From an uncultured Bacilli bacterium (GTDB lineage Bacteria > Bacillota_I > Bacilli_A > RF39 > UBA660): a stretch of DNA of 64,000 nt. Shown one piece after another: positions 12,937 through 40,115 of the stretch; the first letter of the stretch is position 1, and each line of letters begins with the position of its first letter. The notes beneath the pieces are model-generated. The model searched no databases. It was not told the origin of the DNA and saw only the letters and a list, made by a program, of their open reading frames with translations. The DNA lies in assembly GCA_934096815.1 (NCBI GenBank), contig CAKOMY010000002.1:9546-73545 (forward strand), in the 5' to 3' direction. Made by a program: the position numbers and the translations under genes.

Positions 12937-13535
12937 TGAATATAAATTATAATGAAGAAATGAAAAAAATAATAAGTAATTTAGATAGTAATAATACACT
13001 TTTATTACATTCATGTTGTGGACCTTGTTCAACAGCAGTAATTGAAAGATTAAAAGATTACTTTGATATAACAGTTCTTTATTATAATCCAAATATTGAA
13101 CCGAAAGATGAATACATAAAAAGAAAAGAAGAACAATTAAAAGTATTAAAAGAATATAATATTAAATTTAAAGATATTGATTATTTAAATGAAGAATATC
13201 GTAAGAAAGTAATTGGATATGAAAAAGAACCAGAAAATGGCGCAAGATGTCATATTTGTTATGAACTTAGATTAGAAAAAACAGCTATTCTAGCTAAAGA
13301 AAATAGCTTTGATTATTTTGCAACAACCTTAACTGTTAGTCCATATAAAAATGCTAAAGTGATTAATGAAATAGGACTTAAGTTACAAAACAAATATGAT
13401 GTTAAATATTTACTTTCTGATTTTAAAAAAGAAGATGGTTATAAGAAAAGTATTGAACTATCTAAAAAATATAATTTATATCGTCAAGATTACTGTGGAT
13501 GTTTATTTAGTAAGGAGAGAAAAGTAGATGAATAA
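12933..13535 (+). CDS. queH: Epoxyqueuosine reductase QueH (DUF208)
   Basis: LLLHSCCGPCS...YYNPNIEP...DYCGCLFS cysteine pattern typical of QueH. Confidence 0.7.
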   Translation: MMNINYNEEMKKIISNLDSNNTLLLHSCCGPCSTAVIERLKDYFDITVLYYNPNIEPKDEYIKRKEEQLKVLKEYNIKFKDIDYLNEEYRKKVIGYEKEPENGARCHICYELRLEKTAILAKENSFDYFATTLTVSPYKNAKVINEIGLKLQNKYDVKYLLSDFKKEDGYKKSIELSKKYNLYRQDYCGCLFSKERKVDE

Positions 13536-13923
13536 AAAAGGATTTACATTAGTTGAGATATTAGCAACACTTGTGATACTATCTTTTATATTTATGCTTA
13601 CTTATCCAACGATACAAAAGGCTTTTAACAATGGTAAAACAGCAATTTCTGAATTAAGTAAGAAACAAATTGAAGATGCAGCTAAAATAGTAATAGATGA
13701 AGTTATTTATTGCAATATGTCAGAAGATACTAAATCACTGTTAAATGCTACTAACTGCAAGGATGCACTTGATAAAATTGTTAATGGAATTAATGTTGAT
13801 ATTTCTAAATTGAATTTAGACAATATAAATAATAAACAAAAATGTGAAGGTATAATAAGTATAAAAATAGATAGAGAAACATATAAAGAAACAATAGATA
13901 TGACAAATGTAATATGTAAATAA
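13528..13923 (+). CDS. Prepilin-type N-terminal cleavage/methylation domain protein (type IV pilin-like pseudopilin)
   Basis: MNKKGFTLVEILATLVILSFIF matches the class III signal and N-methylation motif. Confidence 0.6.
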   Translation: MNKKGFTLVEILATLVILSFIFMLTYPTIQKAFNNGKTAISELSKKQIEDAAKIVIDEVIYCNMSEDTKSLLNATNCKDALDKIVNGINVDISKLNLDNINNKQKCEGIISIKIDRETYKETIDMTNVICK

Positions 13924-15290: not shown

Positions 15291-17240
15291 ATGAAATATC
15301 AAAATAAAAATAATCAAATTTTTATTAAATTAAAGTCTAAATTAAGTAGATATTATGATGAAATTCGTTTAATACCAATGAGTAAGGAATATTATTTCGA
15401 TTATGTAACTGAATTGATTAGTAGATGTAGTTGTGAAAATGAAGAAGAAGTATTTAATTTGATAAAAGATCAAACTATAGAGTTAATTTTAAATAGTGAT
15501 AATTGTTTTGAATTTATAAATGGATATATTAATGATAATTTTTCTATAAATAGTGATATTTTAGATTTTTTTAACAAGTTAAATAATTTATTGTTGAAAT
15601 GTAAAAAATTAATAGATTTGGATTTTTATATTGAATTACTAAATAAAAATAAGTTATTGTATTCTATAACTGAATTATATTTTAAGAAGCGTGAGGAACA
15701 AATTATTGGAAGTAATCTTTGGGATTTATTAGATTGTTATGTATTAGTTTATTGTTTACAAGCATATTTAATAATAAATAATATTGAACTTAAGGAAGAA
15801 ATAATTGATTTTGATTACGAATTTGATTATGATTATAAAACTGATTCTTTAACGCAATATTTAAATGAAATAAAACAATATAAAGTTTTAGATGCTCATG
15901 AAGAAAGAAAAATTATTATTGCTACTCAATGTGGTAATATAGAAGCACGTGATTTATTTATAAAATGTAATTTAAGATTAGTAGCAAGTATAGTTCTTAA
16001 AAATTATAATAATAAAGGTATATCAATTTTGGATTTAATTCAAGAAGGAAATATTGGCATGATGCGAGCACTTGATAAATTTAATGTTAATGCTGGATAT
16101 AAATTTTCAACTTATGCTTATCCATGGATTAAACAATATATTGAAAGATATATTGAAAGAAATGGAAGAAATATAAGAATTTCAAGTAATTTTATATTAA
16201 AAATCAATAAATATAAGACTGTATATAGTGAATTAGAAATTAAATTAGGTAGAAAACCTACTAGAAAAGAAATAAGTGTCTTTGCTGGTTTATCAGAAAG
16301 TGATATAGAATTAATTGAAAAAAATTTAAGTGATGTTCTTAGTTTGGATGCGAAATGTGATAATAATGAAGATTTTAAAATATCTGATTCAATAGTAGAT
16401 CCTAGTCCATTATTTGAAGAAGAATATATAGAACAAGAACAAATTAAAATTTTAATGGACAGTTTTTCGAAAGCTAAATTATCTGATAGAGAAGTTGAAA
16501 TATTAAAATGTAGAAATGGCTTTTATGGCAATATTATGTCTTATGAAAAAATTGGAAAAAAATATAATATTAGTAAAGAAAGAGTAAGAAAAATTGAAAT
16601 TGCTACAGTTAAAAAGATAAAAGAATATTTAGAAAAAACTGGAGTTCTTTCAGAAAAAATAAATGTTGATAATATAAATTCAAAACTTATATATGACTAT
16701 TTTAAAGATTATTCTAGGGAACAGATAAATTATGCAATAAAATTTTTGAACGAAGGATATAAAAAGTTAATTTATCTTCATTTAGGAAAAAATTTAAATA
16801 AATTATATGCTTCAAGGTTAAATAGTGAACAAATAAAAATGTTTGATGATTATGTTTTGATAAGAATTTTTAATATTTTATTAATGATATTTGGAGATAG
16901 AAATAGTGATTATAAAAAAGAATTGAATAAAAAAACGTTTGATATAATGCTGTGTTTATTAGAAATGTATCCTTTTACAATAATAAAAGAAAATATATCT
17001 TTAGATGTGTTGATCACGGGGTTATTAAAATTAGGGTATGTTAATGGAGATACTTACAGTGATGAAGTAATTGCTAAATTTTTTAATACATCTGTAGAAA
17101 ATATTACCAAATATTTTAGGGATTTTTTAAGGCTTACTAAAAGTGATCCTTATATTAATAGTATAGTAAAAGAAAAAGAATTTTATTTAAAGTTAGCAAA
17201 CCTAACATATATGGCTAAGATTAATAAAAAGATAAAGTAG
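15291..17240 (+). CDS. Atypical 649-aa sigma-70 family protein (regions 1.2-4 flanked by about 175-aa N-terminal and about 200-aa C-terminal extensions)
   Basis: RpoD-like core: FIKCNLRLVASIV (2.1), DLIQEGNIGMMRALDKF (2.2), YKFSTYAYPWIKQYI (2.3/2.4), region 4 HTH LSDREVEILKCRNGF...ISKERVRKIEIATVKKIKE. Confidence 0.6.
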   Translation: MKYQNKNNQIFIKLKSKLSRYYDEIRLIPMSKEYYFDYVTELISRCSCENEEEVFNLIKDQTIELILNSDNCFEFINGYINDNFSINSDILDFFNKLNNLLLKCKKLIDLDFYIELLNKNKLLYSITELYFKKREEQIIGSNLWDLLDCYVLVYCLQAYLIINNIELKEEIIDFDYEFDYDYKTDSLTQYLNEIKQYKVLDAHEERKIIIATQCGNIEARDLFIKCNLRLVASIVLKNYNNKGISILDLIQEGNIGMMRALDKFNVNAGYKFSTYAYPWIKQYIERYIERNGRNIRISSNFILKINKYKTVYSELEIKLGRKPTRKEISVFAGLSESDIELIEKNLSDVLSLDAKCDNNEDFKISDSIVDPSPLFEEEYIEQEQIKILMDSFSKAKLSDREVEILKCRNGFYGNIMSYEKIGKKYNISKERVRKIEIATVKKIKEYLEKTGVLSEKINVDNINSKLIYDYFKDYSREQINYAIKFLNEGYKKLIYLHLGKNLNKLYASRLNSEQIKMFDDYVLIRIFNILLMIFGDRNSDYKKELNKKTFDIMLCLLEMYPFTIIKENISLDVLITGLLKLGYVNGDTYSDEVIAKFFNTSVENITKYFRDFLRLTKSDPYINSIVKEKEFYLKLANLTYMAKINKKIK

Positions 17241-17248: not shown

Positions 17249-19198
17249 ATGAATAATGATAATATATATGAAATTATAATAGAATGGTTAGAATCTTTAT
17301 ATAGTGAGATACCATATATTTCGAAAAATTTATCCGATTATTTGGAATATGTGAAAGAAAAATTAAAAGATGAAAAATTAAATATTGATAGTTTAAAAAT
17401 TGAATTAAAAGATAAGATTATAATAGATATATTAAAAGGATATAACTATTTAGAGTTTTTGAATTTTTATATAAATCATAATTTTAAGGAAACTAATAAA
17501 ATAGAAGAAATAATAGATTATTTTTATGAATTAAACAGGTTAATAGAAGATTCTGGAAGAATAATGTTAATGGATGATTATTTTTATTTATTAAAAAATA
17601 ATAAAATTCTATTAAAATTACTTGAAGTTGTATATAATAGGTACGATAAATTTATAAAAAATAATAGATTTTCGGAGGTTAATAGTAATTCTTTATTAAA
17701 AGCAATTATGCAGGCTTATTGTGATTTAAATAATATTGAAATAGAAGATAGATTTGATAAATTAGAAGATTATTATAGTGATGATAGTTTAGCACAGTAT
17801 ATTTTTGAAATTAGAAGATATCCATTGTTAAATAAAGAAGAAGAAAGAATGTTAATTCTTGAAATAAATAAGGGTAATCAAGATGCTAAAGATTTCTTTA
17901 TAAAATGTAATTTAAGATTAGTTGTATCTGTGGTAATGAGAGAATTTTATAGTTGTTCAATATCTAAATTAGATTTAATTCAAGAAGGAAATTTAGGATT
18001 AATGAGAGCTGTTGAAAAATATAATATTTTAAGTGAGAATAAGTTTTCTAGTTATGCTTACTATTGGATTGAATCCTTTATAACTAGGGCTATAAATAAT
18101 CAATGTCGTACTATTCGCGTTTCTGTTGATTTTCATTATAAAATAAATAAGTATAAAAAGATTTATGAATTATTATTCAACAAATATGGTAGAATTCCAA
18201 CAATGCAAGAAATGATAGAAGCAACAGGAATGAATGAGGAAACTATAAATCTTATTCGAAGTAATCTTATTGGTGTAGTAAGTTATGATTTAGAAGTTAC
18301 CAATGATACTACAGATAAAATATTAGATTTTGTAGAAGATTCAGATGCGAATATTGAAGCAAATTTTCTAATAAAACAGAAGAAAGAAATTTTTAGACAA
18401 TTGTTTAAGAGTAATTATTTAAGCGAAAGAGAAAAGAAAATTTTAATTGATAGGTTTGGTTTTAATGGAGATATTAAATCTCTTGAAGAAATTGGTGCTG
18501 AAATGAAAATAACTAGAGAAAGAGTAAGACAACTTGAGGAAAAAGCAAAAAGAAAAGCATTTAATTTTATCAAAAAACATTATAGAAAAATAATTGAAGT
18601 ACCAAATGAATATCAAAATGGTTTAGATAAAAACTCTGATTTGGTTCAAAAACCATTATATTCTTCATTACCATATCCTTTTGAACAAGTTGATAATGTA
18701 ATATCATTATTGGATAAAAAAGAGCGTGATTATGTAGAATTAAAATATGGAACGGACTTAAGTAAAGCTTATGAATCTAAATTATCAAAATATGAGACTA
18801 AACGTTTTTATAAATTAGTTTTACCAAAAATAAAATTACTTCTAGAACAATTAAATGAAAGTCAACCTGTTTCTGAATTTGATACAATTCAAAGTGATAC
18901 ATGTAATAGACTTTTGAAGTTAATTAGACTGGATTCAATTAATGAATTAATAAATTTATATTCATATAACACTATTGTTATTGGTTTTCTTAAAACTGGT
19001 TATGTTGATTTAATTAAATATAATAATTTAGTAATTGCTAATTTTCTTAATATTAGTGAAGAAAATGTGATAAATGATTTTGAAAAGTTTCAAGGATTAT
19101 CAAATAATGATGAGAAATTAATAGATATTTTATCTAAACGAACTAAATATATTAATTTAATTTCAAAAAAAGAAACTACTGAAAAGTTGTCAAAGTAG
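17249..19198 (+). CDS. Atypical 649-aa sigma-70 family protein, tandem paralog of the preceding gene
   Basis: FIKCNLRLVVSVV, DLIQEGNLGLMRAVEKY, FSSYAYYWIESFI, region 4 LSEREKKILIDRFGF...ITRERVRQLEEKAKRKA; same length and architecture as 15291..17240. Confidence 0.6.
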   Translation: MNNDNIYEIIIEWLESLYSEIPYISKNLSDYLEYVKEKLKDEKLNIDSLKIELKDKIIIDILKGYNYLEFLNFYINHNFKETNKIEEIIDYFYELNRLIEDSGRIMLMDDYFYLLKNNKILLKLLEVVYNRYDKFIKNNRFSEVNSNSLLKAIMQAYCDLNNIEIEDRFDKLEDYYSDDSLAQYIFEIRRYPLLNKEEERMLILEINKGNQDAKDFFIKCNLRLVVSVVMREFYSCSISKLDLIQEGNLGLMRAVEKYNILSENKFSSYAYYWIESFITRAINNQCRTIRVSVDFHYKINKYKKIYELLFNKYGRIPTMQEMIEATGMNEETINLIRSNLIGVVSYDLEVTNDTTDKILDFVEDSDANIEANFLIKQKKEIFRQLFKSNYLSEREKKILIDRFGFNGDIKSLEEIGAEMKITRERVRQLEEKAKRKAFNFIKKHYRKIIEVPNEYQNGLDKNSDLVQKPLYSSLPYPFEQVDNVISLLDKKERDYVELKYGTDLSKAYESKLSKYETKRFYKLVLPKIKLLLEQLNESQPVSEFDTIQSDTCNRLLKLIRLDSINELINLYSYNTIVIGFLKTGYVDLIKYNNLVIANFLNISEENVINDFEKFQGLSNNDEKLIDILSKRTKYINLISKKETTEKLSK

Positions 19199-23241: not shown

Positions 23242-23269
23242 TTGACGGGGGGGCTTTTAAAGGTATAAT
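23242..23269 (+). promoter_or_regulatory. Consensus promoter with G7 tract (paralog copy 2)
   Basis: TTGACGGGGGGGCTTTTAAAGGTATAAT, identical to the 9643 and 24846 copies. Confidence 0.55.
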
Positions 23270-23294: not shown

Positions 23295-24788
23295 ATGAAT
23301 AAAGAAGAACAAATAAAAGTATATGTAATGATAGGAACAGTAGTGATGCTCTTAGTGATCTTTTCGGGAATAACATATGCTTTTTTTAGTGCCAGTAATA
23401 ATAAAGGAAGTACATCGATAGTAGAGGTAAAAAGTGGTAAAATGACAATAAGTTATGCAAATGGTAAAAGTAGATTGTTAGTATCAAAAGATATTCAACC
23501 AAGTGATAAGATAATAATAGATAAAACTTTTACATTAACAGGAACAAATACAACAAGTGGCTTAGCTATGCCATATAAGATAGGACTAAATTATGTATCT
23601 GAGTTTAGTGATGGACAAATACATTATTATATTAAAAGAACAAACGCCAATAGTAATATAACAAGTAATTTAGTAGGAACAGCAAATCAAACAATACCAG
23701 GAAATACCACTGAAACAGGATATACTACTGGGACACTTAAAAAAGGTAATAGATACTTAGAACTAGCAACAGGAGAATTTAAAGCAAACACAAGTAATCA
23801 AACAATAACATTTAATTTAAAAATCCAATTTCCTGTTACCGGAGTAAGTCAAGATAGTGAAAAAGGAAAAACACTAACTGGTGAAATAGTTGTAAATTAC
23901 GAAGAAACAGCAACTGATACCTTAATGGCTCTTTATGATAAAGAAACAAAGACAAATGAAGTATCAACAAGTGGATTATTTATTGATGATACTAAAGATG
24001 TAAATTTAAGATATACCGGAGCAACACCAAATAACTATGTCGAGTTTAATAATGAGACATGGAGAATAATTGGAATATTTAATGTATTTAATAATGAAAC
24101 TAAAAAAGTTGAAAAAATGATTAAAATAATAAGAAATGAATCTCTTGGATTATATTCTTGGGATACGTCTAATTCTAAAGTGAACGATGGAAAAGGAATT
24201 AATGAATGGAGTCAAGCAAAATTAATGTATGAATTAAATACGGATTATATAGACATTAGTAAAAGTGGAACAACTAAATGGTATAATGGTCCGGAAAATG
24301 CACAAAATGAAATTTATGAATATAGTAAAAACATAAATAGTGATTCGATGGATAAAATAGCAAATGTTAAATGGAATACTGGTGGAACAATATACGGAGT
24401 AAACGTAATTACTTCTTACAATCAAGAACGAGGAACAATTAATGTTGATAATCCGACAGATGGAATTGTTAGAAATAGTTATTGGAATGGTAAAATTGGA
24501 TTATTATATCCAAGTGATTATGGTTATGCATCCTCAAATGATATATGTAGAAGTCAGTTGAGTTCACCTGACTGTAAAAATAATAATTGGATTTTTATAG
24601 GTATGAGTCAATGGACAATAACTCCTTATAAAAATAGTAGTATGAGATCATTTAGTTCATTAGAACATGGTATTATAAATGATACCAATGTAAGCAATCC
24701 AAGTAATGTTCGTCCAACAATTTTTTTAAAAAATCATGTAAAAATAATAAGAGGAGAAGGAACAAATTCTAATCCATATCAAATATAG
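23295..24788 (+). CDS. Secreted protein, paralog family member 2
   Basis: Start moved to the ATG aligned with the other paralogs (MNKEEQIKVYVMIGT...); shares the conserved N-domain; mosaic C-region (middle like copy 4, end like copy 3) ending ...VRPTIFLKNHVKIIRGEGTNSNPYQI. Confidence 0.6.
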   Translation: MNKEEQIKVYVMIGTVVMLLVIFSGITYAFFSASNNKGSTSIVEVKSGKMTISYANGKSRLLVSKDIQPSDKIIIDKTFTLTGTNTTSGLAMPYKIGLNYVSEFSDGQIHYYIKRTNANSNITSNLVGTANQTIPGNTTETGYTTGTLKKGNRYLELATGEFKANTSNQTITFNLKIQFPVTGVSQDSEKGKTLTGEIVVNYEETATDTLMALYDKETKTNEVSTSGLFIDDTKDVNLRYTGATPNNYVEFNNETWRIIGIFNVFNNETKKVEKMIKIIRNESLGLYSWDTSNSKVNDGKGINEWSQAKLMYELNTDYIDISKSGTTKWYNGPENAQNEIYEYSKNINSDSMDKIANVKWNTGGTIYGVNVITSYNQERGTINVDNPTDGIVRNSYWNGKIGLLYPSDYGYASSNDICRSQLSSPDCKNNNWIFIGMSQWTITPYKNSSMRSFSSLEHGIINDTNVSNPSNVRPTIFLKNHVKIIRGEGTNSNPYQI

Positions 24789-24845
24789 TATATATAATAT
24801 AAATTACCATACATATTATAAATTACAAATAGAACAAAAATTCGC

Positions 24846-24873
24846 TTGACGGGGGGGCTTTTAAAGGTATAAT
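24846..24873 (+). promoter_or_regulatory. Consensus promoter with G7 tract (paralog copy 3)
   Basis: TTGACG plus G run, 16 nt, TATAAT; the whole 24786-24897 intergenic region is near-identical to 23180-23294. Confidence 0.55.
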
Positions 24874-24897
24874 TTCACTAGGATAAGGTGATTTTAT

Positions 24898-26457
24898 ATG
24901 AATAATAAAGAAGAACAAATAAAAGTGTATGTAATGATAGGAACAATAATAATGCTCCTAGTGATATTTTCAGGAGTAACATATGCTTTTTTTAGTGCCA
25001 GTAATAATAAAGGAAGTACATCAATAGTAGAAGTAAAAAGTGGAAAAATGACAATAAGTTATGCAGATGGTAAAAGTAGTTTATTAGTATCAAAAGATAT
25101 TCAGCCAAGTAATAAGATAATAATAGATAAAACTTTCACGTTAACAGGAACAAATACAACTAGTGGACTTGCCATGCCATATAAAGTAGGACTAAATTAT
25201 GTATCTGAGTTTAGTGATGGACAAATACATTATTATATTAAAAGAACGAATGCAAATGCAAATATCACAAGCAATTTAATTGGAACTGCAAATCAAACTA
25301 TACCAGGAAATATTTCTGAAACTGGTTATACTTTTGGAACACTTAAAAAAGGTAATAGATACTTAGAACTAGCAACAGGAGAGTTTAAAGCAAGCACAAG
25401 TAATCAAACAATTACATTTAACCTAAAACTACAATTTCCTGATACAGGTATCAATCAAGATAGTGAAAAAGGAAAAACACTAACTGGTGAAATCGTTGTA
25501 AATTATGAATCTGAAACTATTGCTAAAACAATTTCTAAATTAGATAAAGAAAGTAATGGACTTGAAATAGATGATACTGTAGATAAAAATTTAAGATATG
25601 TAGGAGTAAATCCTAGAAACTATATAACATTTAACAACGAAACGTGGAGAATTGTTGGCGTATTTAATAACATTACAACTATAGATGATAATGGAAATGA
25701 AAAACAAGAATCATTAGTAAAAATAATACGAGATGAACGTATAGGAAGCTATTCATGGGATAGTTCATCATCAGATATAAATGATGGTAGTGGAATCAAT
25801 GAATGGAGTCAAGCAGACTTAATGTATGAACTTAACTGTGATGGAACGTCTTCATCAAAATATTGTCGCGAAGATATAGCCGGTGGCTATTTATCAAACA
25901 TTACAAATGGAACAACTAAATGGTATAATACTCAGAATAATATTCAAGGTGCAACTTATTATTATAGTAAAAATGTCAAAAAGGAATATATAAATTATAT
26001 TGCAACTGCTAGATGGAATTTAGGTGGGGCAACATACGGCTCGAGTTCATTAAAATCATATAATGAGGAACGAGGAACTAACCATATAAGTAACCCATCA
26101 GATGGAATCTCAAGAACTAACTTTTGGAAAGGAAAAATTGCTTTATTGTATCCAAGTGATTATGGGTATGCTTCAACAGATTCATTATGTAGAAGTGATA
26201 TGCGTTCACAAACTAGTAATATTTATAATTGTCAAAATAATAATTGGTTATTCAATGGTACATATCAATGGACATTGTCTTCATTTTCTGATAGGGATAA
26301 AGCTATATTTAATTTCACTAATAAAGGGTGGGTAACTAATGTCGATGCATGTGCTAGTAGTAGCGTACGTCCAACTCTATACTTAAAATCTGATATTGTA
26401 ATAGTTGGAGGAACTGGAGAAAAAGGAGATACATATATAATAGATGAAATTAAATAA
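24898..26457 (+). CDS. Secreted protein, paralog family member 3
   Basis: N-terminal 60 codons nearly identical in DNA to the gene at 9695; C-terminal module ends VRPTLYLKSDIVIVGGTGEKGDTYII. Confidence 0.6.
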   Translation: MNNKEEQIKVYVMIGTIIMLLVIFSGVTYAFFSASNNKGSTSIVEVKSGKMTISYADGKSSLLVSKDIQPSNKIIIDKTFTLTGTNTTSGLAMPYKVGLNYVSEFSDGQIHYYIKRTNANANITSNLIGTANQTIPGNISETGYTFGTLKKGNRYLELATGEFKASTSNQTITFNLKLQFPDTGINQDSEKGKTLTGEIVVNYESETIAKTISKLDKESNGLEIDDTVDKNLRYVGVNPRNYITFNNETWRIVGVFNNITTIDDNGNEKQESLVKIIRDERIGSYSWDSSSSDINDGSGINEWSQADLMYELNCDGTSSSKYCREDIAGGYLSNITNGTTKWYNTQNNIQGATYYYSKNVKKEYINYIATARWNLGGATYGSSSLKSYNEERGTNHISNPSDGISRTNFWKGKIALLYPSDYGYASTDSLCRSDMRSQTSNIYNCQNNNWLFNGTYQWTLSSFSDRDKAIFNFTNKGWVTNVDACASSSVRPTLYLKSDIVIVGGTGEKGDTYIIDEIK

Positions 26458-26780
26458 TTTTATCAAAACAAAAAAAGATGATAAATATAGAAAACTTCAA
26501 TAATATATTTGATAAATTCCAAAAATATATTATAAATCATGGTTGGTGACATAAAAAAGGATTAAAATTCATAAAATTTTGTGCTGATTATTCTTGAATT
26601 TAATCGTATCATAAATATGTCGAAAGATAGTAATTTTGAAGGAAGAGAAACAGTTTAGCGACTAAGGAATCTCTTCTTTTATTTTATCTTAATATTCTTT
26701 AAATAATGTGCAATTCATTTTACACTATCTATGGCCCGTCAAGTGTAGTTAAAAAATTTTTAAAGTGAACCTACGTTTGC

Positions 26781-26808
26781 TTGACGGGGGGGTAAATGGC
26801 GATATAAT
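26781..26808 (+). promoter_or_regulatory. Consensus promoter with G7 tract (paralog copy 4, divergent spacer)
   Basis: TTGACGGGGGGGTAAATGGCGATATAAT; -35, G7 and -10 are conserved although the spacer sequence differs. Confidence 0.5.
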
Positions 26809-26838
26809 TTGACTATGATATAGGAAGGATAAAGAAGA

Positions 26839-28398
26839 ATGAATGAACAAAAAGTAAGAACAATTGTGGTTTTATCAATAATAATAATGATGATAGTGTT
26901 ATTTATTGGAATAACTTATTCTTATTTTACTGCTTTAAATAATAAAGGAAGTACATCATTAATATCAGCAACAAGTGGTAAAATGGTAATAAGTTATGCC
27001 GATGGATCTAGTAAATTATTATCAAGTGAAAATATACAGCCAAGTAATAAGATTTTAATAGATAAAACATTCACATTAACTGGAACAAATACAACTAGTG
27101 GCTTAGCCATGCCATATAAAGTAGGCCTAAATTATGTATCTGAGTTTAGTGATGGACAAATACATTATTATATTAAAAGAATGAGTACAAATAGTAATAT
27201 AACAAGCAAATTAGTAGGAACAGCAAATCAAACAATACCAGGAAATACAACTGAAACAGGATATACTACAGGAACACTTAAAAAAGGTAATAGATACTTA
27301 GAACTAGCAACAGGAGAGTTTAAAGCAAATACATCAAATCAAACAATAACATTTAATTTAAAAATCCAATTTCCGGATACCGGAGTAAGTCAAGATAGTG
27401 AAAAAGGAAAAACACTAACTGGTGAAATAGTTGTCAATTACGAAGAATCAGCAACTGATACCTTAATGGCTCTTTATGATAAAGAAACAAAGACAAATGG
27501 AGTATCAACAAGTGGATTATTTATAGATGATACTAAAGATGTAAATTTAAGATATGCAGGAGCAACACCAAATAACTATGTTTATTTTGGAAATGATAAT
27601 GAATTATGGAGAATAGTTGGAATATTTAATGTAACAGATTCAGAAGGTAATACAACAAGAAAACTAAAATTAGTAAGAGATTCAGCATTAGGTGGATACT
27701 CATGGGATGCAACTGGAAATAATAATCATGGATTTAATGATTGGACAGATGCAGATTTAATGAAAGAATTAAATGGAGATTATTTAAATACAACCTTAAC
27801 AGCCAATAAAACAAATTGGTACAATTCATATTGGGATTCTAGCACACAAAAACCAGTATTAAGACAAACAGGAACATTTAACTATACAACTGTCATAAAA
27901 GATAAATATCAAAACATGATAAGCAATAGTGTATGGAACATCGGTGGAAATAGTTATACCGATTCTACACCATATTCTATAAACTTATTAACTCAGTATA
28001 ATCGTGAGAGAGATAAAATAACCTATCAAAATAGTCGTCCTACCACTTGGATAGGTAAGGTTGGACTTATTTATGCAAGTGATTATGGTTATGCATCAAC
28101 TTATGCAGAATGTCATAAAAACTTAAGAGTAGGAGTAACTTATGATAAATCTACTAATAAGTGGGATTATTCTGGACTATGTAAAATAGATAACTGGCTT
28201 GCCAAGAACTCATGGTACTGGACATTGTCGCCTTACTCTGGTGACTCGTATCACGTGTTCTATGTGCATGGGGACGGTGCTGTCAACATCCTCGACGCGT
28301 GTCTTTCCAACAACGTTTTTCCGACAGTTTTCTTGAAATCTGATGTCAAAATAACAAGTGGAACAGGTGAAAAAGGAAGCCCATATATTTTAATTTAA
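26839..28398 (+). CDS. Secreted protein, paralog family member 4
   Basis: Divergent signal region (MNEQKVRTIVVLSIIIMMIVLFIGITYSYFTALNNKGSTS), same conserved N-domain, distinct C-region ending VFPTVFLKSDVKITSGTGEKGSPYILI. Confidence 0.6.
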   Translation: MNEQKVRTIVVLSIIIMMIVLFIGITYSYFTALNNKGSTSLISATSGKMVISYADGSSKLLSSENIQPSNKILIDKTFTLTGTNTTSGLAMPYKVGLNYVSEFSDGQIHYYIKRMSTNSNITSKLVGTANQTIPGNTTETGYTTGTLKKGNRYLELATGEFKANTSNQTITFNLKIQFPDTGVSQDSEKGKTLTGEIVVNYEESATDTLMALYDKETKTNGVSTSGLFIDDTKDVNLRYAGATPNNYVYFGNDNELWRIVGIFNVTDSEGNTTRKLKLVRDSALGGYSWDATGNNNHGFNDWTDADLMKELNGDYLNTTLTANKTNWYNSYWDSSTQKPVLRQTGTFNYTTVIKDKYQNMISNSVWNIGGNSYTDSTPYSINLLTQYNRERDKITYQNSRPTTWIGKVGLIYASDYGYASTYAECHKNLRVGVTYDKSTNKWDYSGLCKIDNWLAKNSWYWTLSPYSGDSYHVFYVHGDGAVNILDACLSNNVFPTVFLKSDVKITSGTGEKGSPYILI

Positions 28399-28401: not shown

Positions 28402-28440
28402 AAAGGATATTGGAAAATAATAACAATATCCTTTATTTCT
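28402..28440. terminator. Bidirectional rho-independent terminator between convergent genes
   Basis: 10-bp stem aaggatattg/caatatcctt with 11-nt loop, flanked by A and T runs. Confidence 0.55.
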
Positions 28441-28996
28441 TTTTTAGTTTAAACCTATCTAATAATGTTTTTTTCTTTGTGATAATTTCATTTATTCTTA
28501 AGTTTATTAAATCTTCATCAGTTCCAAATACTTTAGCACAAAATTCTGGATTATGAAAATGATTTTCTAATTTAAGTAATTCATCTTTTGGAACTAATAA
28601 ATTTCTTGCCATATATTCCGCAAGTTCATTTCTTTGCATTTTTTCTATTGAACCATAACCTGTATGATAATTTATATTTTTAGAATTTAAATGAAACATA
28701 TAATAAGAAAGTAAATATAAAATTAGATATCTTTTATCTTTTGGTTTAAGATTTGATCTAATAACTATACTTTTATCTTTATTATTAACTCTTATGATTC
28801 CATCAATAAATGTTGGTAAGTTTTCATTTTCATAAACATTAAAATTAAATAGATCAGCAAGTTTTAATACTACAATTCTTTGAATATTAATATCATAATA
28901 TCTGTTTTTATATTCATAATTTTTATATACCTTAAATTCTTTTTTTATTTTATTAATTGTTTCATCTAATTCTTGTTTTGTTAATTCATCAATCAT
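28433..28996 (-). CDS. Degenerate ImmA/IrrE-like (DUF955) protein lacking the HEXXH zinc motif, paralog A
   Basis: Architecture I-x-V-N...R-x-R-[YF] then LLSYYMFH where HEXXH is expected, followed by the ELAEYMARNLLVP motif typical of the family C-terminus. Confidence 0.4.
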   Translation of the reverse strand: MIDELTKQELDETINKIKKEFKVYKNYEYKNRYYDINIQRIVVLKLADLFNFNVYENENLPTFIDGIIRVNNKDKSIVIRSNLKPKDKRYLILYLLSYYMFHLNSKNINYHTGYGSIEKMQRNELAEYMARNLLVPKDELLKLENHFHNPEFCAKVFGTDEDLINLRINEIITKKKTLLDRFKLKKK

Positions 28997-29017
28997 ATAA
29001 TTAATCCTTTCTAATTG

Positions 29018-29268
29018 GTTTATTGGATATTTCCAACTTATATGTATTTGTATTTGTTATTATATCATAAACTTTAGAAGAAACAAGTTCATATTTTCTT
29101 GTTAAAAAAGTATCAGATATTTTAGAACTAATTAATATATCACTTTTAATATTCCTTAAGTAATGTTGTCCTCTTTTATCAAAAACAAGTACTTTAACAT
29201 ATATGGTATCACAATTTTTTCGGTCTTCTTTAGTTAATCAAATTAAAATATGAATAAGCATTAATGTA
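29018..29268 (-). pseudogene. 3'-terminal remnant of a tmcAL paralog (product of a tandem duplication)
   Basis: About 250 bp, about 80% identical in DNA to 29985..30235 (C-terminal 85 codons of tmcAL) but interrupted by stops. Confidence 0.6.
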
Positions 29269-29397: not shown

Positions 29398-29961
29398 TTA
29401 GTTCTTTATTTTATTTATTAAATTTTTAACAGTATTGTCATTTTTAAGATAATATAACTGTTCACACATAATTTTTAAATTTACACTAAATATTTTAGTA
29501 CATAAAGTTGGATACAAGTAATAATTTTTAATTTTATTTAATTCTTCTTTTGGAACTAAAATATTTCTAGCTATATATTCAGCATTCTTATCTCTGTATT
29601 TAAAATCTTCTTCAGTATCAAATGATTGCAAAAAAATATAATCTTCATTTGCATGTAATAAATAATACGATAATAAATACATAATAATATATCTTTTATT
29701 ACTTAGACTTCTGTGTTTATTAACAATTATTTTTTTATATTCATTATTAGTATATAAAATACCATCATTTAAATCAGGAAGAATATCACTTTCTTCAATT
29801 TCTACATCAAATAAATTTGCAAGTTTAACTGTGTTTACTTTTTTTATTTCAATCTTATTGTGATTAATGTAATATTGATTTGTATCAAATGCAATATCAA
29901 GATTTGTTTTAATTTCATTAATTTTATAATCTAAAATATCTTTATTCACATTTTCATTCAT
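29398..29961 (-). CDS. Degenerate ImmA/IrrE-like (DUF955) protein lacking HEXXH, paralog B
   Basis: 187 aa, same length as 28433..28996; YLLSYYLLHANE in place of HEXXH, then AEYIARNILVP. Confidence 0.4.
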   Translation of the reverse strand: MNENVNKDILDYKINEIKTNLDIAFDTNQYYINHNKIEIKKVNTVKLANLFDVEIEESDILPDLNDGILYTNNEYKKIIVNKHRSLSNKRYIIMYLLSYYLLHANEDYIFLQSFDTEEDFKYRDKNAEYIARNILVPKEELNKIKNYYLYPTLCTKIFSVNLKIMCEQLYYLKNDNTVKNLINKIKN

Positions 29962-29966
29962 TAAAT

Positions 29967-31079
29967 TTATTTCTCCTTTCTTATCGGTTTATTCGACAAT
30001 TCAAATTTATATGAATCTGTGTTGCATATTATATCATATATTTTTGAAGAAACAAGTTCATATTTTCTAGTTAAAAAAGTATCAGGTATTTTAGAACTTA
30101 ATAATATATCACTTTTAATATTCTTTAAGTAACGTTGTCCTATATTGTCAAAACCAAGTACTTTAACGTATTCAATATCACATTTTTTTCTATCTTCTTT
30201 AGTTAGTCCAATTAAAATATGAATAAGCATTCTTCTAATTCGGTTATATGTATATCTTTTAGATTTAACTTTATTTATTAATTCATCTATTGTTTTACAA
30301 TTATTTATTTCTTTAATTAATTTATATTCGATACCTTCATCAACAGTTAAATATTTACTTAAATCTTTATCAGTAATAATTTTATATTTAATTAACTTAA
30401 ATAATAACTCTTCATTAATCTTATTAAAAATAGGATCATAATTAATATATTTTTTTACATCAATATTATTTTTAATTTTTTCTCTTATGTTACTTGCACT
30501 TACTATATTACTTTCGCTTACAGTATCTAAATAATTACTTGTTCTTTTAATAGTGATAGGCTTAATATCATAATTATTCTTTATAATAGCTTTAATATAA
30601 CTAACGCCTAATAAATCATTAGGACTATTTAAATTAACACCAATACCTTTATTTAAGGCAGTAGGGTAGTTTATTCCTTTTTTTATTTCTTCTTTAACTT
30701 TTAAAGAAAAATCATCTTCTAATTGTTTTTTAGCAATTAATGTAAGTTTATCTATATCATTTGATTCACTACCAAAAATTATTTTATCTACTTTCATATA
30801 ATTTAATATTTTGACACTTGCATCAGCAAAAGTATCAGCTGAATTAGAAGCAAAAACGAAAGGTAGTTCAACAACTATATTGATACCGTTATTAAGTGCT
30901 AATTTAGTTTTATCTTCTTTAGAAAGAATACTAATATCGCCTCTTTCTCCAAAATAACCATTAACACACAAAATAATTATTGAATCAGGACACATTTCTT
31001 TAATTTTATTAATATGATAAACATGACCATTATGAAATGGATTATATTCACAAATAATTCCGATAGTTTCCATAAACAC
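29967..31079 (-). CDS. tmcAL: tRNA(Met) cytidine acetate ligase (YlbM/DUF795 nucleotidyltransferase family)
   Basis: N-terminus METIGIICEYNPFHNGHVYHI matches the HIGH-like nucleotidyltransferase signature of TmcAL/YlbM; 370 aa. Confidence 0.7.
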   Translation of the reverse strand: MFMETIGIICEYNPFHNGHVYHINKIKEMCPDSIIILCVNGYFGERGDISILSKEDKTKLALNNGINIVVELPFVFASNSADTFADASVKILNYMKVDKIIFGSESNDIDKLTLIAKKQLEDDFSLKVKEEIKKGINYPTALNKGIGVNLNSPNDLLGVSYIKAIIKNNYDIKPITIKRTSNYLDTVSESNIVSASNIREKIKNNIDVKKYINYDPIFNKINEELLFKLIKYKIITDKDLSKYLTVDEGIEYKLIKEINNCKTIDELINKVKSKRYTYNRIRRMLIHILIGLTKEDRKKCDIEYVKVLGFDNIGQRYLKNIKSDILLSSKIPDTFLTRKYELVSSKIYDIICNTDSYKFELSNKPIRKEK

Positions 31080-31566: not shown

Positions 31567-31843
31567 AATAGGAATTTAAGTAGTCAAAAAATGCAGAACA
31601 AATTACTCTAAATTTGCACAATATATGTTGATAAAATCATATGTTATTCCTATAGACAGGTGAATTTGATGAGCTTAACAAAAAAGTTTATAAATAGATA
31701 AAGCGACAAAAGAAAATATATAGTTATAACAATGGAATATATTCAATTTATGAAAAATATCAACAAAAGAAATTTAAATCATACTTTTTTATTGTTTTAT
31801 CGTTAATTTTATTATATACTTTAAGCGTAAGGATGTGATAGTT

Positions 31844-33250
31844 GTGGGAAAAGTAAAATTATTAATATTTAGCATCATAGCATGTTTATTTATTAATGTA
31901 AGTGCTCTTACATATACTGAAGAAGAAGTAGTAGATAGAATTAATTCATCTAAAGTAAGTGTAAATGAGTTATTAGGGGATTTAATAAATTGGTCTGATA
32001 CAAATAAAAATGCGACTAAAAAATTAGTTAACAAAGATTTTGTTAAAAGCATTAATTCTTTAGACTTTGAAACTAACTTAAATAAGACAATAAGTAAATT
32101 AAGAAATAGTGGAGAGATTAAGGCTGCTAATGACTTAGAAGCATTAAAATCAAAACTTTTAAATAATTATAATAGTTATAAAGAAACACTTAAAATAACT
32201 AAAACTTATTTAGAAGAAAGAAAAGATTATGGAGTTAATGGTAATTTAGATGTATTTATAGCAATTAGAGAACTTGCTAAATATAATAAGTCTAGTATAT
32301 CTTCTTTAGGAAAAATATATTATAGTGATGCATTTGATTATATATATGATAATATTGATAAATATACTATTGATGAGGTAATTAGTGAATTTGATTATAT
32401 TTATGAATTAGATATTGTTAATAAACTATTTAATAAGTCTGATGAGTTTATGGCAATTTATAATGATTATCATTTAGAAGACTATGATGATTTATTTAAG
32501 GATTACTTTGGAAGTTATTATAGTACTTTAAAGAAAGATTATTATAAATTATATGATAAATTAGAAAGTAAATATCAGGCTATTTTAGAAAAGAAAGTTA
32601 AAGAAATAGTTGATAATACTGATTTGAGTAGTGATGCAAGTATTACAAATAGAAATAACAAATTATATGAATTAATAGATGAAATAGATTTAACAAGTAA
32701 TAAGTTAAATACTAGATTTAATAATATTGATTCTAAAATTAAAATAGCAAGTATTAAAAAATATACTAAAGAATATCAAACTGAAGCATTAAATAGATTT
32801 GAAGAAGCAAGTAATTATGTAAGAAAATATATTATTGATAATCTTAAATTAGATGTTAAAAATGATTCTGATAGAAAAGATTTTCAAATAAATATGGCAA
32901 AAGAAATGATTATTTATAGTGGTACAAATTTAGACATTTCAGTTATTGATAAACTTGTAAGTAATTATGGATTTTTAAGAACTGTAAACTTATTTGGAAA
33001 TAATGTTGGTACAGGAAGTAGAATTCAAATTATTAATAATGAATTAATTGTAAAAGATTTCTTATTCATAGTTAAAGGTGATGTTAGTGCATCAGGAAGA
33101 ATAGATATTTCTGATGTAGTTAAAATGGCTAATAAGATGTTTGATAAAGTTAATTTAAGTGAATTTGAAATGATGGCTGCTGATATGAATGATGATAATA
33201 AAATTGATATTACTGACATAGTATTACTTTGTAACAAGATATTTAATTAG
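31844..33250 (+). CDS. Secreted protein with C-terminal type I dockerin-like domain
   Basis: Signal peptide (cleavage near VSA-LT); two 12-residue Ca-loop repeats at the C-terminus, DVSASGRIDISD and DMNDDNKIDITD, each followed by a hydrophobic helix; GTG 31844 preferred on RBS spacing (track start 31835). Confidence 0.5.
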   Translation: MGKVKLLIFSIIACLFINVSALTYTEEEVVDRINSSKVSVNELLGDLINWSDTNKNATKKLVNKDFVKSINSLDFETNLNKTISKLRNSGEIKAANDLEALKSKLLNNYNSYKETLKITKTYLEERKDYGVNGNLDVFIAIRELAKYNKSSISSLGKIYYSDAFDYIYDNIDKYTIDEVISEFDYIYELDIVNKLFNKSDEFMAIYNDYHLEDYDDLFKDYFGSYYSTLKKDYYKLYDKLESKYQAILEKKVKEIVDNTDLSSDASITNRNNKLYELIDEIDLTSNKLNTRFNNIDSKIKIASIKKYTKEYQTEALNRFEEASNYVRKYIIDNLKLDVKNDSDRKDFQINMAKEMIIYSGTNLDISVIDKLVSNYGFLRTVNLFGNNVGTGSRIQIINNELIVKDFLFIVKGDVSASGRIDISDVVKMANKMFDKVNLSEFEMMAADMNDDNKIDITDIVLLCNKIFN

Positions 33251-34151: not shown

Positions 34152-34167
34152 TGTTTAAAAAATAAAA

Positions 34168-34284
34168 GTGGGTGCAAAAAGGTGCAAGTACAACCAAAAA
34201 GTGGGTGCAAAAAGGTGCAAGTACAACCAAAAAGTGGGTGCAAAAAGGTGCAAGTACAACCAAAAAGTGGGTGCAAAAAGGTGT
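34168..34284. repeat. 33-bp direct tandem repeat, 3.5 copies (GTGGGTGCAAAAAGGTGCAAGTACAACCAAAAA)
   Basis: Three perfect copies (34168, 34201, 34234) plus a partial fourth; intergenic; GC-richer than the surroundings. Confidence 0.85.
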
Positions 34285-34403
34285 AAATCATACATATACA
34301 ATATATTAATCAATTAATCTTATTATTAGTATTCCATATTTCGACAAATAATATCAAAAAAATTAAATATAATAATAACGGATATTAAAGGAGAAATAAG
34401 TTT

Positions 34404-34616: not shown

Positions 34617-34952
34617 ATGGAAAAACAAGATTTGAAAAAAATAAAAAGAAAAGATCTTTTAGAATTATTACTGGCACAGACTAATAGAATTAGAGAATTA
34701 GAAGAAGAAAATATAAAACTTCAAAATGAATTAAATAATCGAAAAATTAAGATTGATGAATCAGGAACACTTGCAGAAGCAGCTCTTAAGCTTAATAATC
34801 TTTTTGAAGATGCTGAGAAAGCTATCGATGATTATTTTTACAATCTTGAAGCTAGGCAGGGTAATAGTATATCCAAAAAAGATACTATAGTTACAATAAA
34901 TAATATTAGAAAGCCACTTAATAATAAGAAAAGTAATTATGAAAAAAACTAA
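34617..34952 (+). CDS. Coiled-coil protein, hypothetical
   Basis: 111 aa with heptad-like charged pattern; overlaps the start of the signal peptidase gene. Confidence 0.3.
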   Translation: MEKQDLKKIKRKDLLELLLAQTNRIRELEEENIKLQNELNNRKIKIDESGTLAEAALKLNNLFEDAEKAIDDYFYNLEARQGNSISKKDTIVTINNIRKPLNNKKSNYEKN

Positions 34953-35529
34953 AGAAAAACTAAATTATAAAGATTTAATTGTTTCAGATATTGAAGATGA
35001 AATTGCTAGAGAAAAATATAAAAAAAGTTTTACTAAAATACTTACAAATACCTTATTTATATTATTAATTATTTTAGCAGTTGGTTCAATTATAACAACT
35101 ATCTTTATGCCAGTTATAGAAGTTACATCATCTAGTATGAAACCAATAATTAATGATGGTAATTTAATTTTAAATTTTAAAACTAATAATTATAGAACTG
35201 GAGATATAGTTTCATTTTATCATGGTAATAAGATACTTATTAAAAGAGTTATTGGAACTAGTGGAGATTTTATAAATATAGATATAGATGGGAATGTGTA
35301 TGTAAATGGAAATAAAATAAATATTCCTAATGTTACAAACTTAAAAAAGGGGAATGGAGATGTAACTTTTCCTTTACAAGTACCAGAAAATTCTTTATTC
35401 GTATTAAGTGATGAAAGAGATAATATGTTTGATTCAAGGACTAGTGAAATAGGTTTTGTAAGTAAAAATGACACAATAGGTAAGGTTATTTTAAAAATTT
35501 ATCCATTAAATGAGATAAGAATCATATAA
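34939..35529 (+). CDS. Signal peptidase I (S26 family, P-type), pilus-locus associated
   Basis: N-terminal TM; SSSMKP (Ser box), IKRVIGTSGD (Lys box), LSDERDNMFDSR (GDNRxxSxDSR-like box). Confidence 0.7.
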   Translation: MKKTKEKLNYKDLIVSDIEDEIAREKYKKSFTKILTNTLFILLIILAVGSIITTIFMPVIEVTSSSMKPIINDGNLILNFKTNNYRTGDIVSFYHGNKILIKRVIGTSGDFINIDIDGNVYVNGNKINIPNVTNLKKGNGDVTFPLQVPENSLFVLSDERDNMFDSRTSEIGFVSKNDTIGKVILKIYPLNEIRII

Positions 35530-35548
35530 TAACTTAGCGGGAGGTTTT

Positions 35549-37816
35549 ATGAGAAAACTTAAACAATTTATCTTATTGTTCTTTATATTCATTTTCGTAC
35601 TAAATCCTTTTTTAAATGTTTTTGCAAGTAATAATGAACAACAAATTAAATATATTGGTACAACTACAACTGGTGAAAAGGCTACAATTAGTAAAATTAT
35701 TACTCCTTCAGAATTAGAAAATTATTTTGATATAACTTTAAAAGTTAAAACAGAAGAAGAACTTAGAAAGCAAGATATGTCAATTGTAATAGTTATGGAT
35801 ATATCTAATACTATGAATGATTATTTAGATATAAATAAAACGGATACTAAATATGATGCTGCAATTAAAGCGATGGAAAGTTTTATTAAAAAGTTTGCGA
35901 GTGTTTCTTTAAATGTTCCAAACTCTGTAACTCGTAAAATTGGATTTGTTGCTTTTAATACTGATGCTCATTTAATATTTTCCTTAAGTGATTGTAAAAC
36001 GCAAGAAGAAGCAGATGCTTTAATAGATAAAATGAAAACAAGTACTAAAAAAATTATTAAAGCTGATGGCTATAAAGATTCTCACTTACGATTTACTAAT
36101 ATTGAAGCTGGATTAAAAGCATCTAGTGATATGCTTACTTATGTTACTTCTAATAAACATGTTATTTTCTTATCGGATGGTTTTCCAACAACTTATATTT
36201 CATCTGGTTACAAAGGATATGATCCATATACAATTTATAAAGCAAACAGTAATGATTCTAAAGAAGGATATTTCTTTGATGGTAAAAAAACTACAACTTC
36301 AAATAATCAAAAAGTATGCTTATATGGAACTAGTTATAGTGATAGAGGAGCAATAAAAGCAAGGAATATGGCTATACAAATGAAAAAAAATAATATAACT
36401 ATCCATTCAGTAGGTGTTGGAATAATCAAAAAAGAAGATGGAGGAACTTTAAAAACTATTGCAGAATATCGTAGTCAAAGTAATAAAAGTAATTTTTCGG
36501 TTATCGATGTTGATAAAAATGCAACCAAGTATGAAATTGGTGGTGAAAATGATTTAGAAGGATATAAAAATTGGTTAAAAAATAAAATTGGTTCAAACAT
36601 ATATTATGATGCAACAGATACAGCGGGAATGAATGAAGCGTTTAATGGAATATTTGAAAATGTAAAGCTTTTATCTGAAGCAGGTGAAGTAATAGATCCA
36701 ATGGGTGATGATATTGAGTTTGTTAAGTTTTATAATAATCAAGATAATAAAGTTACATATGATAATGAGACAATTAAATGGAATTTAAAAGATTCTAAGT
36801 TTGTAACAAGTGTTAAAGATAATATTACTTATTATGAATATGAACTTAAATATCAAATAAGATTAGAAAATGAAAATCCTGATTTTAATTATAATAATGC
36901 TATCTCTACTAATAAGAAAACAACCTTAAGTTATGTTATTAAAAATGGTGATGATACTATTATTAAAACATTAGATTTTAAAATTCCTACCATAGAAGGA
37001 TATTATGCTTCATTAGAGTTTGATAAAAAATCAGATTATAAAAATGAAATACTTGAAGGAGCAGTTTTTGAACTTATTCATGATGATAATTGTTCTTGTA
37101 TGAGTGAGTCTAAACATATTGATAAAAATTATAAATTAACGGCAAGTTCAAATTCTAATGGTAAGGTTGTATTTAATAAAGTTCCTTCAGGACATAGTTA
37201 TAAATTACATGAAATAGAGACTGATGAATATCATAGTTTAGATGATAATTATTATAATATAAAGATTGATTTTGGGTTACTTACACATAACATAGCTAAT
37301 AATACAATTATAAATAATATAATTAAGAAGGATTTAATTATAAGTAAAGTTGTTAAAAATATAACAACTAATAAATCATTTGATTTTGAAATAAATGCAA
37401 ATTATAAAAATAAACAATTAAATGGTACATATCAAGTTATTAGAAACACAAGTGGTAAAGAAACTAATGAATCAATAACATTTATAGATGGCAAAACTAA
37501 GTTTAAATTAAAAAATAATGAATCAATAACAATTAAGGATTTACCTTTTAAAATAGATTTTAATATTAAGGAATTAAATTATGATGGTTTTAGTGTTAAG
37601 TATCAAATTAATGATGGAGATATAAAGAAATTTAATGATAATAAAATAAAAAGTAGTTTAGAAGATGATATGAAAATAAAATTTATTAATTATTCAGGAT
37701 ATATGATGCCTGAAACTGGTAGTAATAAAATGTTAATTTTAGCAATAATAGGTACATTTTTAGTTTTAATACCTATTTTGTATATATCAGTTAATACTTT
37801 TAAAAAGTTTAACTAA
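35549..37816 (+). CDS. Pilus tip adhesin candidate: vWA (MIDAS) domain surface protein with C-terminal sortase signal
   Basis: Signal peptide; vWA MIDAS IVIVMDISNTMND (DxSxS) and ...IFLSDGFPT; C-terminus MPETG, then hydrophobic helix, then KKFN. Confidence 0.6.
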   Translation: MRKLKQFILLFFIFIFVLNPFLNVFASNNEQQIKYIGTTTTGEKATISKIITPSELENYFDITLKVKTEEELRKQDMSIVIVMDISNTMNDYLDINKTDTKYDAAIKAMESFIKKFASVSLNVPNSVTRKIGFVAFNTDAHLIFSLSDCKTQEEADALIDKMKTSTKKIIKADGYKDSHLRFTNIEAGLKASSDMLTYVTSNKHVIFLSDGFPTTYISSGYKGYDPYTIYKANSNDSKEGYFFDGKKTTTSNNQKVCLYGTSYSDRGAIKARNMAIQMKKNNITIHSVGVGIIKKEDGGTLKTIAEYRSQSNKSNFSVIDVDKNATKYEIGGENDLEGYKNWLKNKIGSNIYYDATDTAGMNEAFNGIFENVKLLSEAGEVIDPMGDDIEFVKFYNNQDNKVTYDNETIKWNLKDSKFVTSVKDNITYYEYELKYQIRLENENPDFNYNNAISTNKKTTLSYVIKNGDDTIIKTLDFKIPTIEGYYASLEFDKKSDYKNEILEGAVFELIHDDNCSCMSESKHIDKNYKLTASSNSNGKVVFNKVPSGHSYKLHEIETDEYHSLDDNYYNIKIDFGLLTHNIANNTIINNIIKKDLIISKVVKNITTNKSFDFEINANYKNKQLNGTYQVIRNTSGKETNESITFIDGKTKFKLKNNESITIKDLPFKIDFNIKELNYDGFSVKYQINDGDIKKFNDNKIKSSLEDDMKIKFINYSGYMMPETGSNKMLILAIIGTFLVLIPILYISVNTFKKFN

Positions 37817-37831
37817 GAAAGGAAAAAGAGA

Positions 37832-40107: not shown

Positions 40108-40115
40108 GAGGTAAT

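Follow-up and report, generated by a model that had tools for sequence, protein, structure and literature searches.

Multigene surface families such as Vlp and Vsa of Mycoplasma are variable families that diversify by recombination and by homopolymer tracts in their promoters. In the matrix-fibre proteins TasA, CalY (camelysin) and BsaA, which are served by the signal peptidase SipW, an N-terminal signal that ends in G-x-T-[YFW]-A-[FY]-F is directly followed by a jelly-roll-like β-sandwich of ~170 aa. In the variable proteins of diversity-generating retroelements (DGRs), such as Bordetella phage Mtd, Treponema TvpA and the gut-phage 'tentaclins', the variable region (VR) lies at the C-terminal end of a C-type-lectin-type domain (PMC10743442). 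One published DGR target is the domain DUF6273 (PMC10743442; bioRxiv 10.1101/2024.10.15.618418), and residues 31–322 of the Thomasclavelia ramosa IgA protease, annotated as DUF6273, form an enlarged (double-size) C-type-lectin-like domain that is dispensable for catalysis and of unknown function (PMC12402451, PMC12237041). Here, we compare these systems with a family of secreted-protein paralogs in a 64-kb stretch of contig CAKOMY010000002.1 from an uncultured Bacilli bacterium; this full stretch is called the window below. The window has ~22% GC and carries four copies of the family, g1 to g4, all on the + strand, among housekeeping genes (murG, ftsQ, queH, ftsY, M16 peptidases, tmcAL and polysaccharide synthesis).

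Each component of the family is known by itself: a SipW/TasA-like domain, a C-type-lectin-like DUF6273 head, a DGR-type VR and a recombining gene family. Their combination and its scale are undescribed, and the literature that we searched contains no paper joining DGRs with TasA, camelysin or SipW. On balance, we favour the following explanation. The genes would form part of a multigene family that is specific to its lineage and encodes exported ligand-binding proteins of uncultured low-GC gut Bacilli, and every gene would be its own transcription unit with a promoter that contains a run of seven G (G7). The protein would consist of a SipW/TasA-type signal, a β-sandwich (the N-module), a short helical linker and a DUF6273 lectin-like head, in which the ~30 residues before V[RF]P..FLK would be the hypervariable and presumed ligand-binding surface. 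Diversity would arise at two levels. First, as shown below, homologous recombination between paralogs at the module boundaries shuffles promoter and N-module, linker and head, and resizes the array. Second, adenine-directed DGR mutagenesis would rewrite the tip in part of the family, including g4 and probably g1, with a retroelement that would sit elsewhere in the genome and act in trans. The N-module may serve export together with anchoring or polymerisation, and the head may bind variable targets, for example host or microbial glycans or proteins. The binding function, the export route and the cellular location of the proteins are matters that we infer, and this tells against the explanation as a whole.

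Mosaic paralogs and their promoters

Three of the genes form a tandem array. The first, g2, spans 23295–24788 and encodes 497 aa; an open reading frame (ORF) is possible from 23283, and the start at 23295 is favoured because the register of its ribosome-binding site is the same as that of g3. The second and third, g3 (24898–26457) and g4 (26839–28398), each encode 519 aa. The original prediction of three tandem paralogs with a common N-terminal part is borne out by protein alignment, in which ~205 aa are near-invariant in g2–g4 and all of the motifs listed for this part are present. The C-terminal module that it described is likewise found in g2, g3 and g4, in the form W-x-L-[ST]-P ... V[RF]P-T-x-[FY]-LK ... 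G-x-GT. A tblastn search revealed the fourth paralog, g1 (9695–11029, 444 aa), the 'copy 1' that the numbering in the original prediction implies, which lies ~13 kb from the array and combines the same N-module with a different and shorter C-module. In the full-length structure model of g3 (predicted local distance difference test score of 85), a hydrophobic helix with the GVTYAFFS motif (residues 3–35) is followed by a predicted β-sandwich (41–201), a helical linker (208–220) and an α/β, C-type-lectin-like domain (222–519). The linker of g4 is common to g2. The exact g4 protein also occurs on a 204-kb ENA metagenome contig, and relatives of the family come from metagenome-assembled genomes (MAGs) labelled 'uncultured Bacilli bacterium' (Hadza gut), 'uncultured Tenericutes bacterium UMGS1661', 'Bacillales bacterium UBA6331' and Erysipelotrichaceae.

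To describe the mosaic structure of g2, we compared its DNA with that of g3 and g4. From 23295 to 23651, g2 shares 92% identity with g3 and 78% with g4; from 23652 to 24084 this relation is inverted, with 94% identity to g4 and 79% to g3. A three-sequence informative-site analysis places the breakpoints at ~23652 and ~24084. The two-breakpoint maximum chi-square is 85.3, compared with at most 21.7 in 200 permutations. From 24085 to 24788, g2 is closer to g3 (65% identity) than to g4 (55%), and this segment is assigned to a third source nearer to g3. The predicted mosaicism is thus confirmed. Pairwise comparison along the genes gives the same picture. The g1 and g3 genes are 98–100% identical across the first ~100 nt, and g2 and g3 are 92–100% identical from −80 to +250; in the middle of the genes, g2 and g4 are 95–98% identical, while the identity of g2 to g3 drops to 40–88%.

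Closely related strains also differ from the window at this locus. In two loci from other samples (L091 and L093), the flanks are 95–97% identical to the window, and two family genes are present instead of three. One 714-nt stretch of the first of these genes, comprising the promoter and the N-module, aligns to both g2 and g3; the window therefore differs from these loci by exactly one repeat unit of 1604 nt. The single gene that stands in place of g2 and g3 has a g2/g3-hybrid N-module with V27I, I139T and S166N relative to g3. In a further locus (L094), the second gene is a chimera, g4-like up to window position ~27630 and then continuing into another head and another downstream neighbourhood. 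The recombination junctions fall repeatedly at two places, where the N-module ends (aa ~205) and where the head begins (aa ~263). The strain comparisons and the recurrent junctions show, and do not merely suggest, that homologous recombination shuffles the modules and expands and contracts the array. Segmental recombination among the paralogs, as originally predicted, is therefore supported by three results: the breakpoint test, the difference of one gene unit between strains, and the chimera of another strain. We also considered a silent-cassette system of the vlsE/pilE type, with one expression site and promoterless donors, and rejected it, since all four copies in the window are full-length ORFs with their own promoters.

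The promoters of g1–g4 have the form TTGACG-N16-TATAAT with the G7 run inside (TTGAC-G7-N10-TATAAT), each with an 11/12 match, and the three best promoter matches of the region are those of family genes. They lie on the + strand at 9643–9670 for g1 (G7 at 9648–9654, 16-nt spacer), 23242–23269 for g2 (G7 at 23247–23253), 24846–24873 for g3 (G7 at 24851–24857) and 26781–26808 for g4 (G7 at 26786–26792). These four tracts are the only G or C runs of at least 6 nt in the 64 kb. Such a position could point to phase-variable expression of each copy by slipped-strand changes of the G run, which sets the distance between −35 and −10 at 16 nt. Tract lengths among 36 related promoters (G5 in one, G6 in two, G7 in 31 and G8 in two) leave five that differ from G7 and give spacers of 14, 15 or 17 nt. 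However, the tract is G7 in the other 31 and in the orthologous promoters of all seven strain loci L088–L094, which fits a conserved promoter or regulator element equally well. We have downgraded phase variation because the orthologous tracts are invariant; it is possible but unsupported, and we regard it as rather unlikely, with a conserved promoter element an equally likely use of the tract.

The comparison with Vlp and Vsa is therefore mixed. The family resembles them in having many paralogs with conserved 5′ ends, in its mosaic genes, in the resizing of the array and in the homopolymer of the promoter spacer. It differs from them in that the window proteins are not lipoproteins, the heads are folded lectin-like domains and not repeats, the tract is nearly fixed at G7, and each copy has its own promoter, which leaves no silent cassettes.

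The DUF6273-like head and its hypervariable tip

We compared the C-modules with DUF6273 by profile and by fold. The short head of g1 matches PF19789 (DUF6273) with 61.4 bits (E 1.3e-16), above the cut-off of 23.5; the head of g4 reaches 15.2 bits (E 0.02), and g2 and g3 give no match. Among 53 close relatives of g3, 13 match PF19789 (best E 4.6e-6). The predicted fold of the g3 C-module matches the solved DUF6273 domain at the N-terminus of the T. ramosa IgA protease (PDB 9qa6, residues 31–322), and a profile search of the PDB with the full family detected no sequence match to that domain. An hhalign comparison of the g1 head with the g2–g4 family aligned the VR alone. From the modelled fold, the C-module is assigned to the DUF6273/C-type-lectin-like domains, and it ends, at its C-terminus, in the WxL[ST]P ... 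VRP ... FLK module. The arrangement differs from that of the IgA protease: there, the domain is N-terminal to an M64 peptidase, whereas here it is C-terminal, without a peptidase, and hypervariable.

The variability of the head is concentrated at one site. Column entropy over ~120 family members peaks sharply at residues 461–490 of g3 (26278–26367, + strand), at 2.2–2.5 bits and free of insertions and deletions, and this stretch of ~30 residues adjoins V[RF]P..FLK on its N-terminal side. At the DNA level, we distinguished two subtypes of the VR, the ~105 nt ahead of this motif: 'GVRPALFLK' (subR, 10 sequences) and 'VFPAVFLK' (sub4, seven sequences including g4). Both show variable codons in alternation with fixed ones such as GCG, GTG, TTC, GTC, TCG, GGG and GGT GTG CGT CCG GCC. 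The variable sites of subR fall mainly on codon positions 1 and 2 (22/22/9, an NNY pattern), and those of sub4 are spread evenly (17/19/16). Adenine is missing from the invariant VR columns of both subtypes (0/55 in subR and 0/53 in sub4), whereas A is the commonest invariant base in most flanks and tied or second in one. The VR has a GC content of 0.54–0.55 vs 0.32–0.36 in the flanks, its scaffold is identical across MAGs whose flanks are 86–93% variable, and K, Q, M and W are missing from its residues. The adenine-free scaffold is a result at the level of the family, and g2 and g3 are without it.

Within the window, the VR of g4 (28228–28332, + strand) has the GC-rich, adenine-free scaffold in common with paralogs and with orthologs in other MAGs, and it differs from the L091 ortholog at variable codons only. 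The VR of g1 (10920–11002, + strand) carries 28 substitutions relative to an otherwise identical allele in L088: there are no differences in the 1375 nt upstream, 28 in 83 nt, and then near-identity. The nucleotide pattern of the two VR subtypes reads as a textbook footprint of DGR mutagenic homing. It shares with DGR variable proteins the A-free invariant scaffold, the NNY variable codons and the GC-rich 3′ end, and with Mtd, TvpA and the tentaclins the position of the VR. The family departs from the latter in being chromosomal, with many paralogous targets, a fused TasA-like N-module and no linked reverse transcriptase (RT) or template repeat (TR) found; and g2 and g3 have lost the DGR signature or never had it. 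The original prediction named gene conversion among cassettes; the hypervariable tip carries the DGR-type signature instead.

We looked for the retroelement itself in several ways. A looser pattern scan of metagenomes led to one relevant contig (L086, 23% GC), with a DGR cassette at 822–2620 (− strand) in the order target 3′ end, AAC-rich TR ending in GGTGTGCGTCCGGCA, MutS_I-like gene, bAvd and RT; the cassette carries the GGTGTGCGTCCGG core, as in the family. A second cassette (L097, 256–2110) has a MutS_I-like gene, bAvd and RT, and is cut off by the start of its contig before any TR is reached. Tracing RT homologues led to L097 and to two other contigs, which we rejected: L095 (8001–8555) is a remnant truncated by an insertion sequence (IS), and L099 holds an unrelated RT. 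The cassettes of L086, L095 and L097 include the small MutS_I-like accessory gene. The RT genes of these contigs tend to be short or disrupted: that of L086 has an internal deletion, that of L095 is truncated beside the IS, and that of L097 is split by a frameshift. Most database RT homologues are only 100–270 aa long.

Several results weigh against DGR action. Neither an RT nor a TR turned up in the window or across 1.2 Mb of related loci, and the window ORFs that were scanned contain no RT motif. The predicted TR patterns gave no matches in viral contigs and none in one metagenome scan, and the TR of L086 is out of register with both VR subtypes of the family. In g2 and g3 the DGR signature is wholly missing, with ordinary AT-rich codons at this site, and the g3 stretch, for which cluster data exist, is stable between strains. 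All three members of the g4 90% cluster have an identical VR, and the 3′ motif of the g4 VR is altered (CCG ACA vs CCG GCC in relatives). The g1 VR is known in two haplotypes only, and localised gene conversion could give the same pattern.

These points would suit an explanation by recombination only, in which gene conversion among paralogous heads together with positive selection diversifies the tip and no retroelement takes part. Recombination between the paralogs is demonstrably active, no RT or TR was found near any copy, g1 has just two VR haplotypes, and g2 and g3 vary without the A-free scaffold. Conversion, however, leaves unexplained why no invariant VR column holds adenine, why the GC-rich scaffold is constant across species with such variable flanks, and why K, Q, M and W should be missing from the VR in a genome of 22% GC; in addition, DGR cassettes with the same 3′ core occur in related low-GC contigs. 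We consider recombination alone improbable. DGR action on part of the family is a strong inference, with good odds on the nucleotide pattern, and it stops short of demonstration because no linked RT or TR was found, the g4 VR is uniform with an altered 3′ motif, and g2 and g3 are without the signature. Current activity on g4 is less probable than this, and the system may no longer be active there.

The N-module and the SipW/TasA question

The original prediction likened the N-terminal signal to the SipW-cognate TasA/camelysin class. An exhaustive profile search collected N-module homologues, which fall into 434 clusters at 50% identity. In every case the module stands at the N-terminus, either stand-alone (190–250 aa) or fused, in proteins of up to 789 aa, to DUF6273, DUF285/PARCEL repeats, leucine-rich repeats or an ALK-type glycine-rich domain (ALK-GRD). 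Over 94 divergent members with a mean column identity of 9%, the signal motif G-x-T-Y-A-[YF]-F-[ST] retains G26, A30 and F32, each at least 90% conserved. Twelve of these 94 distant homologues match Peptidase_M73 (PF12389; best E 9.8e-7); ten homologues checked singly are borderline at best, with 14.6–22.3 bits or no match (cut-off 22.5). One distant member aligns to positions 9–181 of the 196 positions of the profile. TIGR04088, the hidden Markov model (HMM) of the SipW-cognate signal, is matched by nine of the 94 at E ≤ 0.01 (best 1e-3), and the stand-alone relative reaches 17.3 bits (cut-off 19).

The best support for the link to SipW and TasA is gene context. Four contigs (L101–L104, 24% GC) encode stand-alone N-module proteins of 196 and 239 aa, followed in one conserved operon by a SipW-type peptidase of 316 aa. 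The operon, which in L101 spans 5389–7774, comes after the genes of a two-component system (response regulator and histidine kinase). The peptidase matches TIGR02228 with 99.7 bits (cut-off 51.85), and its alignment with the Bacillus SipW model runs the full length (80 bits). It also bears a long K/N/D-rich C-terminal tail. The family would thus share with TasA, CalY and BsaA the ending of the signal, the β-sandwich directly after it and stand-alone relatives encoded beside a SipW-type peptidase.

In the window, the results are less favourable and count against this assignment. With TIGR04088, g3 scores 15.6 bits (E 0.014), below the cut-off of 19, and g2 and g4 give no match; none of g1–g4 matches Peptidase_M73 (cut-off 22.5 bits). 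Profile searches of the PDB sequences returned nothing, whether the query was the N-module (4 or 94 sequences) or the full family. The hhalign probability of the N-family against TasA is 3.5%, and hhalign and hmmsearch aligned the first strands only. In the fold comparison, TasA appears only at rank 6 amid generic β-sandwiches. The sole signal peptidase of the window, which belongs to a pilus cluster, is LepB-type (TIGR02227 110 bits; TIGR02228 38.6, below 51.85), and a search of 1.2 Mb of family loci found no SipW gene next to a family gene. The prediction of a SipW/TasA-class signal gains support from the HMM matches of distant homologues and from the operon of relatives, but not by direct membership, as the window proteins miss both HMM cut-offs; structure prediction gives a β-sandwich whose fold link to TasA is weak. 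Dozens of copies per genome and a lectin-like head of ~300 aa on the window proteins further set the family apart from TasA.

The same results can be read to mean that the N-module is not TasA-like but a generic β-sandwich stalk behind a Sec signal or an uncleaved anchor, and that the proteins are monomeric surface adhesins. The TasA rank and the sub-threshold scores would be expected here. The conservation of the signal motif over 94 divergent members, the near-complete coverage of the Peptidase_M73 profile by a distant member, and the four contigs in which two stand-alone N-module genes share an operon with a SipW-type peptidase all speak against it, and we give this reading a minor chance. 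We consider it probable that the N-module is a SipW-cognate domain distantly related to the TasA/camelysin type. A more far-reaching version is speculative and quite improbable: the N-module would be a TasA-type donor-strand subunit, and the paralogs would co-polymerise with, or cap, fibres of stand-alone N-module proteins after SipW cleavage, giving a lectin-headed fibre with tips rewritten by a trans-acting DGR and by recombination. If true, a gut bacterium with a reduced genome would possess an adhesive fibre that is hypervariable and, in effect, 'adaptive'.

Finally, the idea that the genes are ordinary diverged tandem duplicates without mosaicism, with the N-module kept by purifying selection only, would suit the tandem order and a functionally constrained N-module, but we reject it as hardly credible, because the abrupt identity switches extend to synonymous sites and upstream non-coding DNA, no permutation reached the observed chi-square, and the strains differ by exactly one repeat unit.

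Family scale and other features of the window

The family comprises more than 2386 homologues, virtually all of them unnamed metagenome proteins. Species-representative genomes contain 537 stretches, and from one MAG alone the loci that were fetched include at least 29 distinct copies. If our explanation is correct, an abundant but uncultured low-GC gut lineage spends dozens of genes on one modular exported protein, keeping the export and assembly end uniform while the binding end is diversified by two independent mechanisms. It would also link three fields that are separate in the literature searched, namely those of SipW/TasA matrix fibres, of DUF6273 in gut IgA proteases and of hypermutation by DGRs.

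Around the array, the window holds further features. Immediately 3′ of g4, on the − strand, lie two paralogous 187-aa IrrE/Peptidase_M78-like genes (28433–28996 and 29398–29961), accompanied by a 274-nt DNA repeat (28989–29262 and 29958–30231). A secreted-looking protein of 471 aa (31835–33250) ends in a type I dockerin, which is unusual for such a small low-GC genome. An intergenic perfect 33-nt tandem repeat, AAAAGTGGGTGCAAAAAGGTGCAAGTACAACC, is present in 3–4 copies at 34164–34286, upstream of an ORF at 34617. The LepB-type signal peptidase is encoded directly upstream of the sortase-pilus cluster (34939–41547), which includes a 755-aa VWA/SpaA tip-like protein, SpaH/EbpB-like pilins of 462 and 293 aa, a class C sortase and a second sortase of 185 aa. 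Adjoining this cluster, an AAA_21 ATPase and RloB-like pair (41718–43579) is a candidate defence system of the OLD/abortive-infection type.

Upstream of the array, an isolated gene between queH and ftsY (13528–13923) encodes a ComGC/GspG-like protein of 131 aa that bears a prepilin-type N-terminal methylation motif, and two tandem 649-aa sigma-70 paralogs (15291–17240 and 17249–19198) contain regions 1.2, 2, 3 and 4 together with N-terminal extensions of ~180 aa that have no Pfam match. Towards the far end of the window, repeated segments of 215, 129 and 97 nt (71–92% identity) within 55941–57850 flank two ORFs, a PD-(D/E)XK transposase-family (Rpn-like) gene at 56182–57216 and a 130-aa ORF at 57480–57872.

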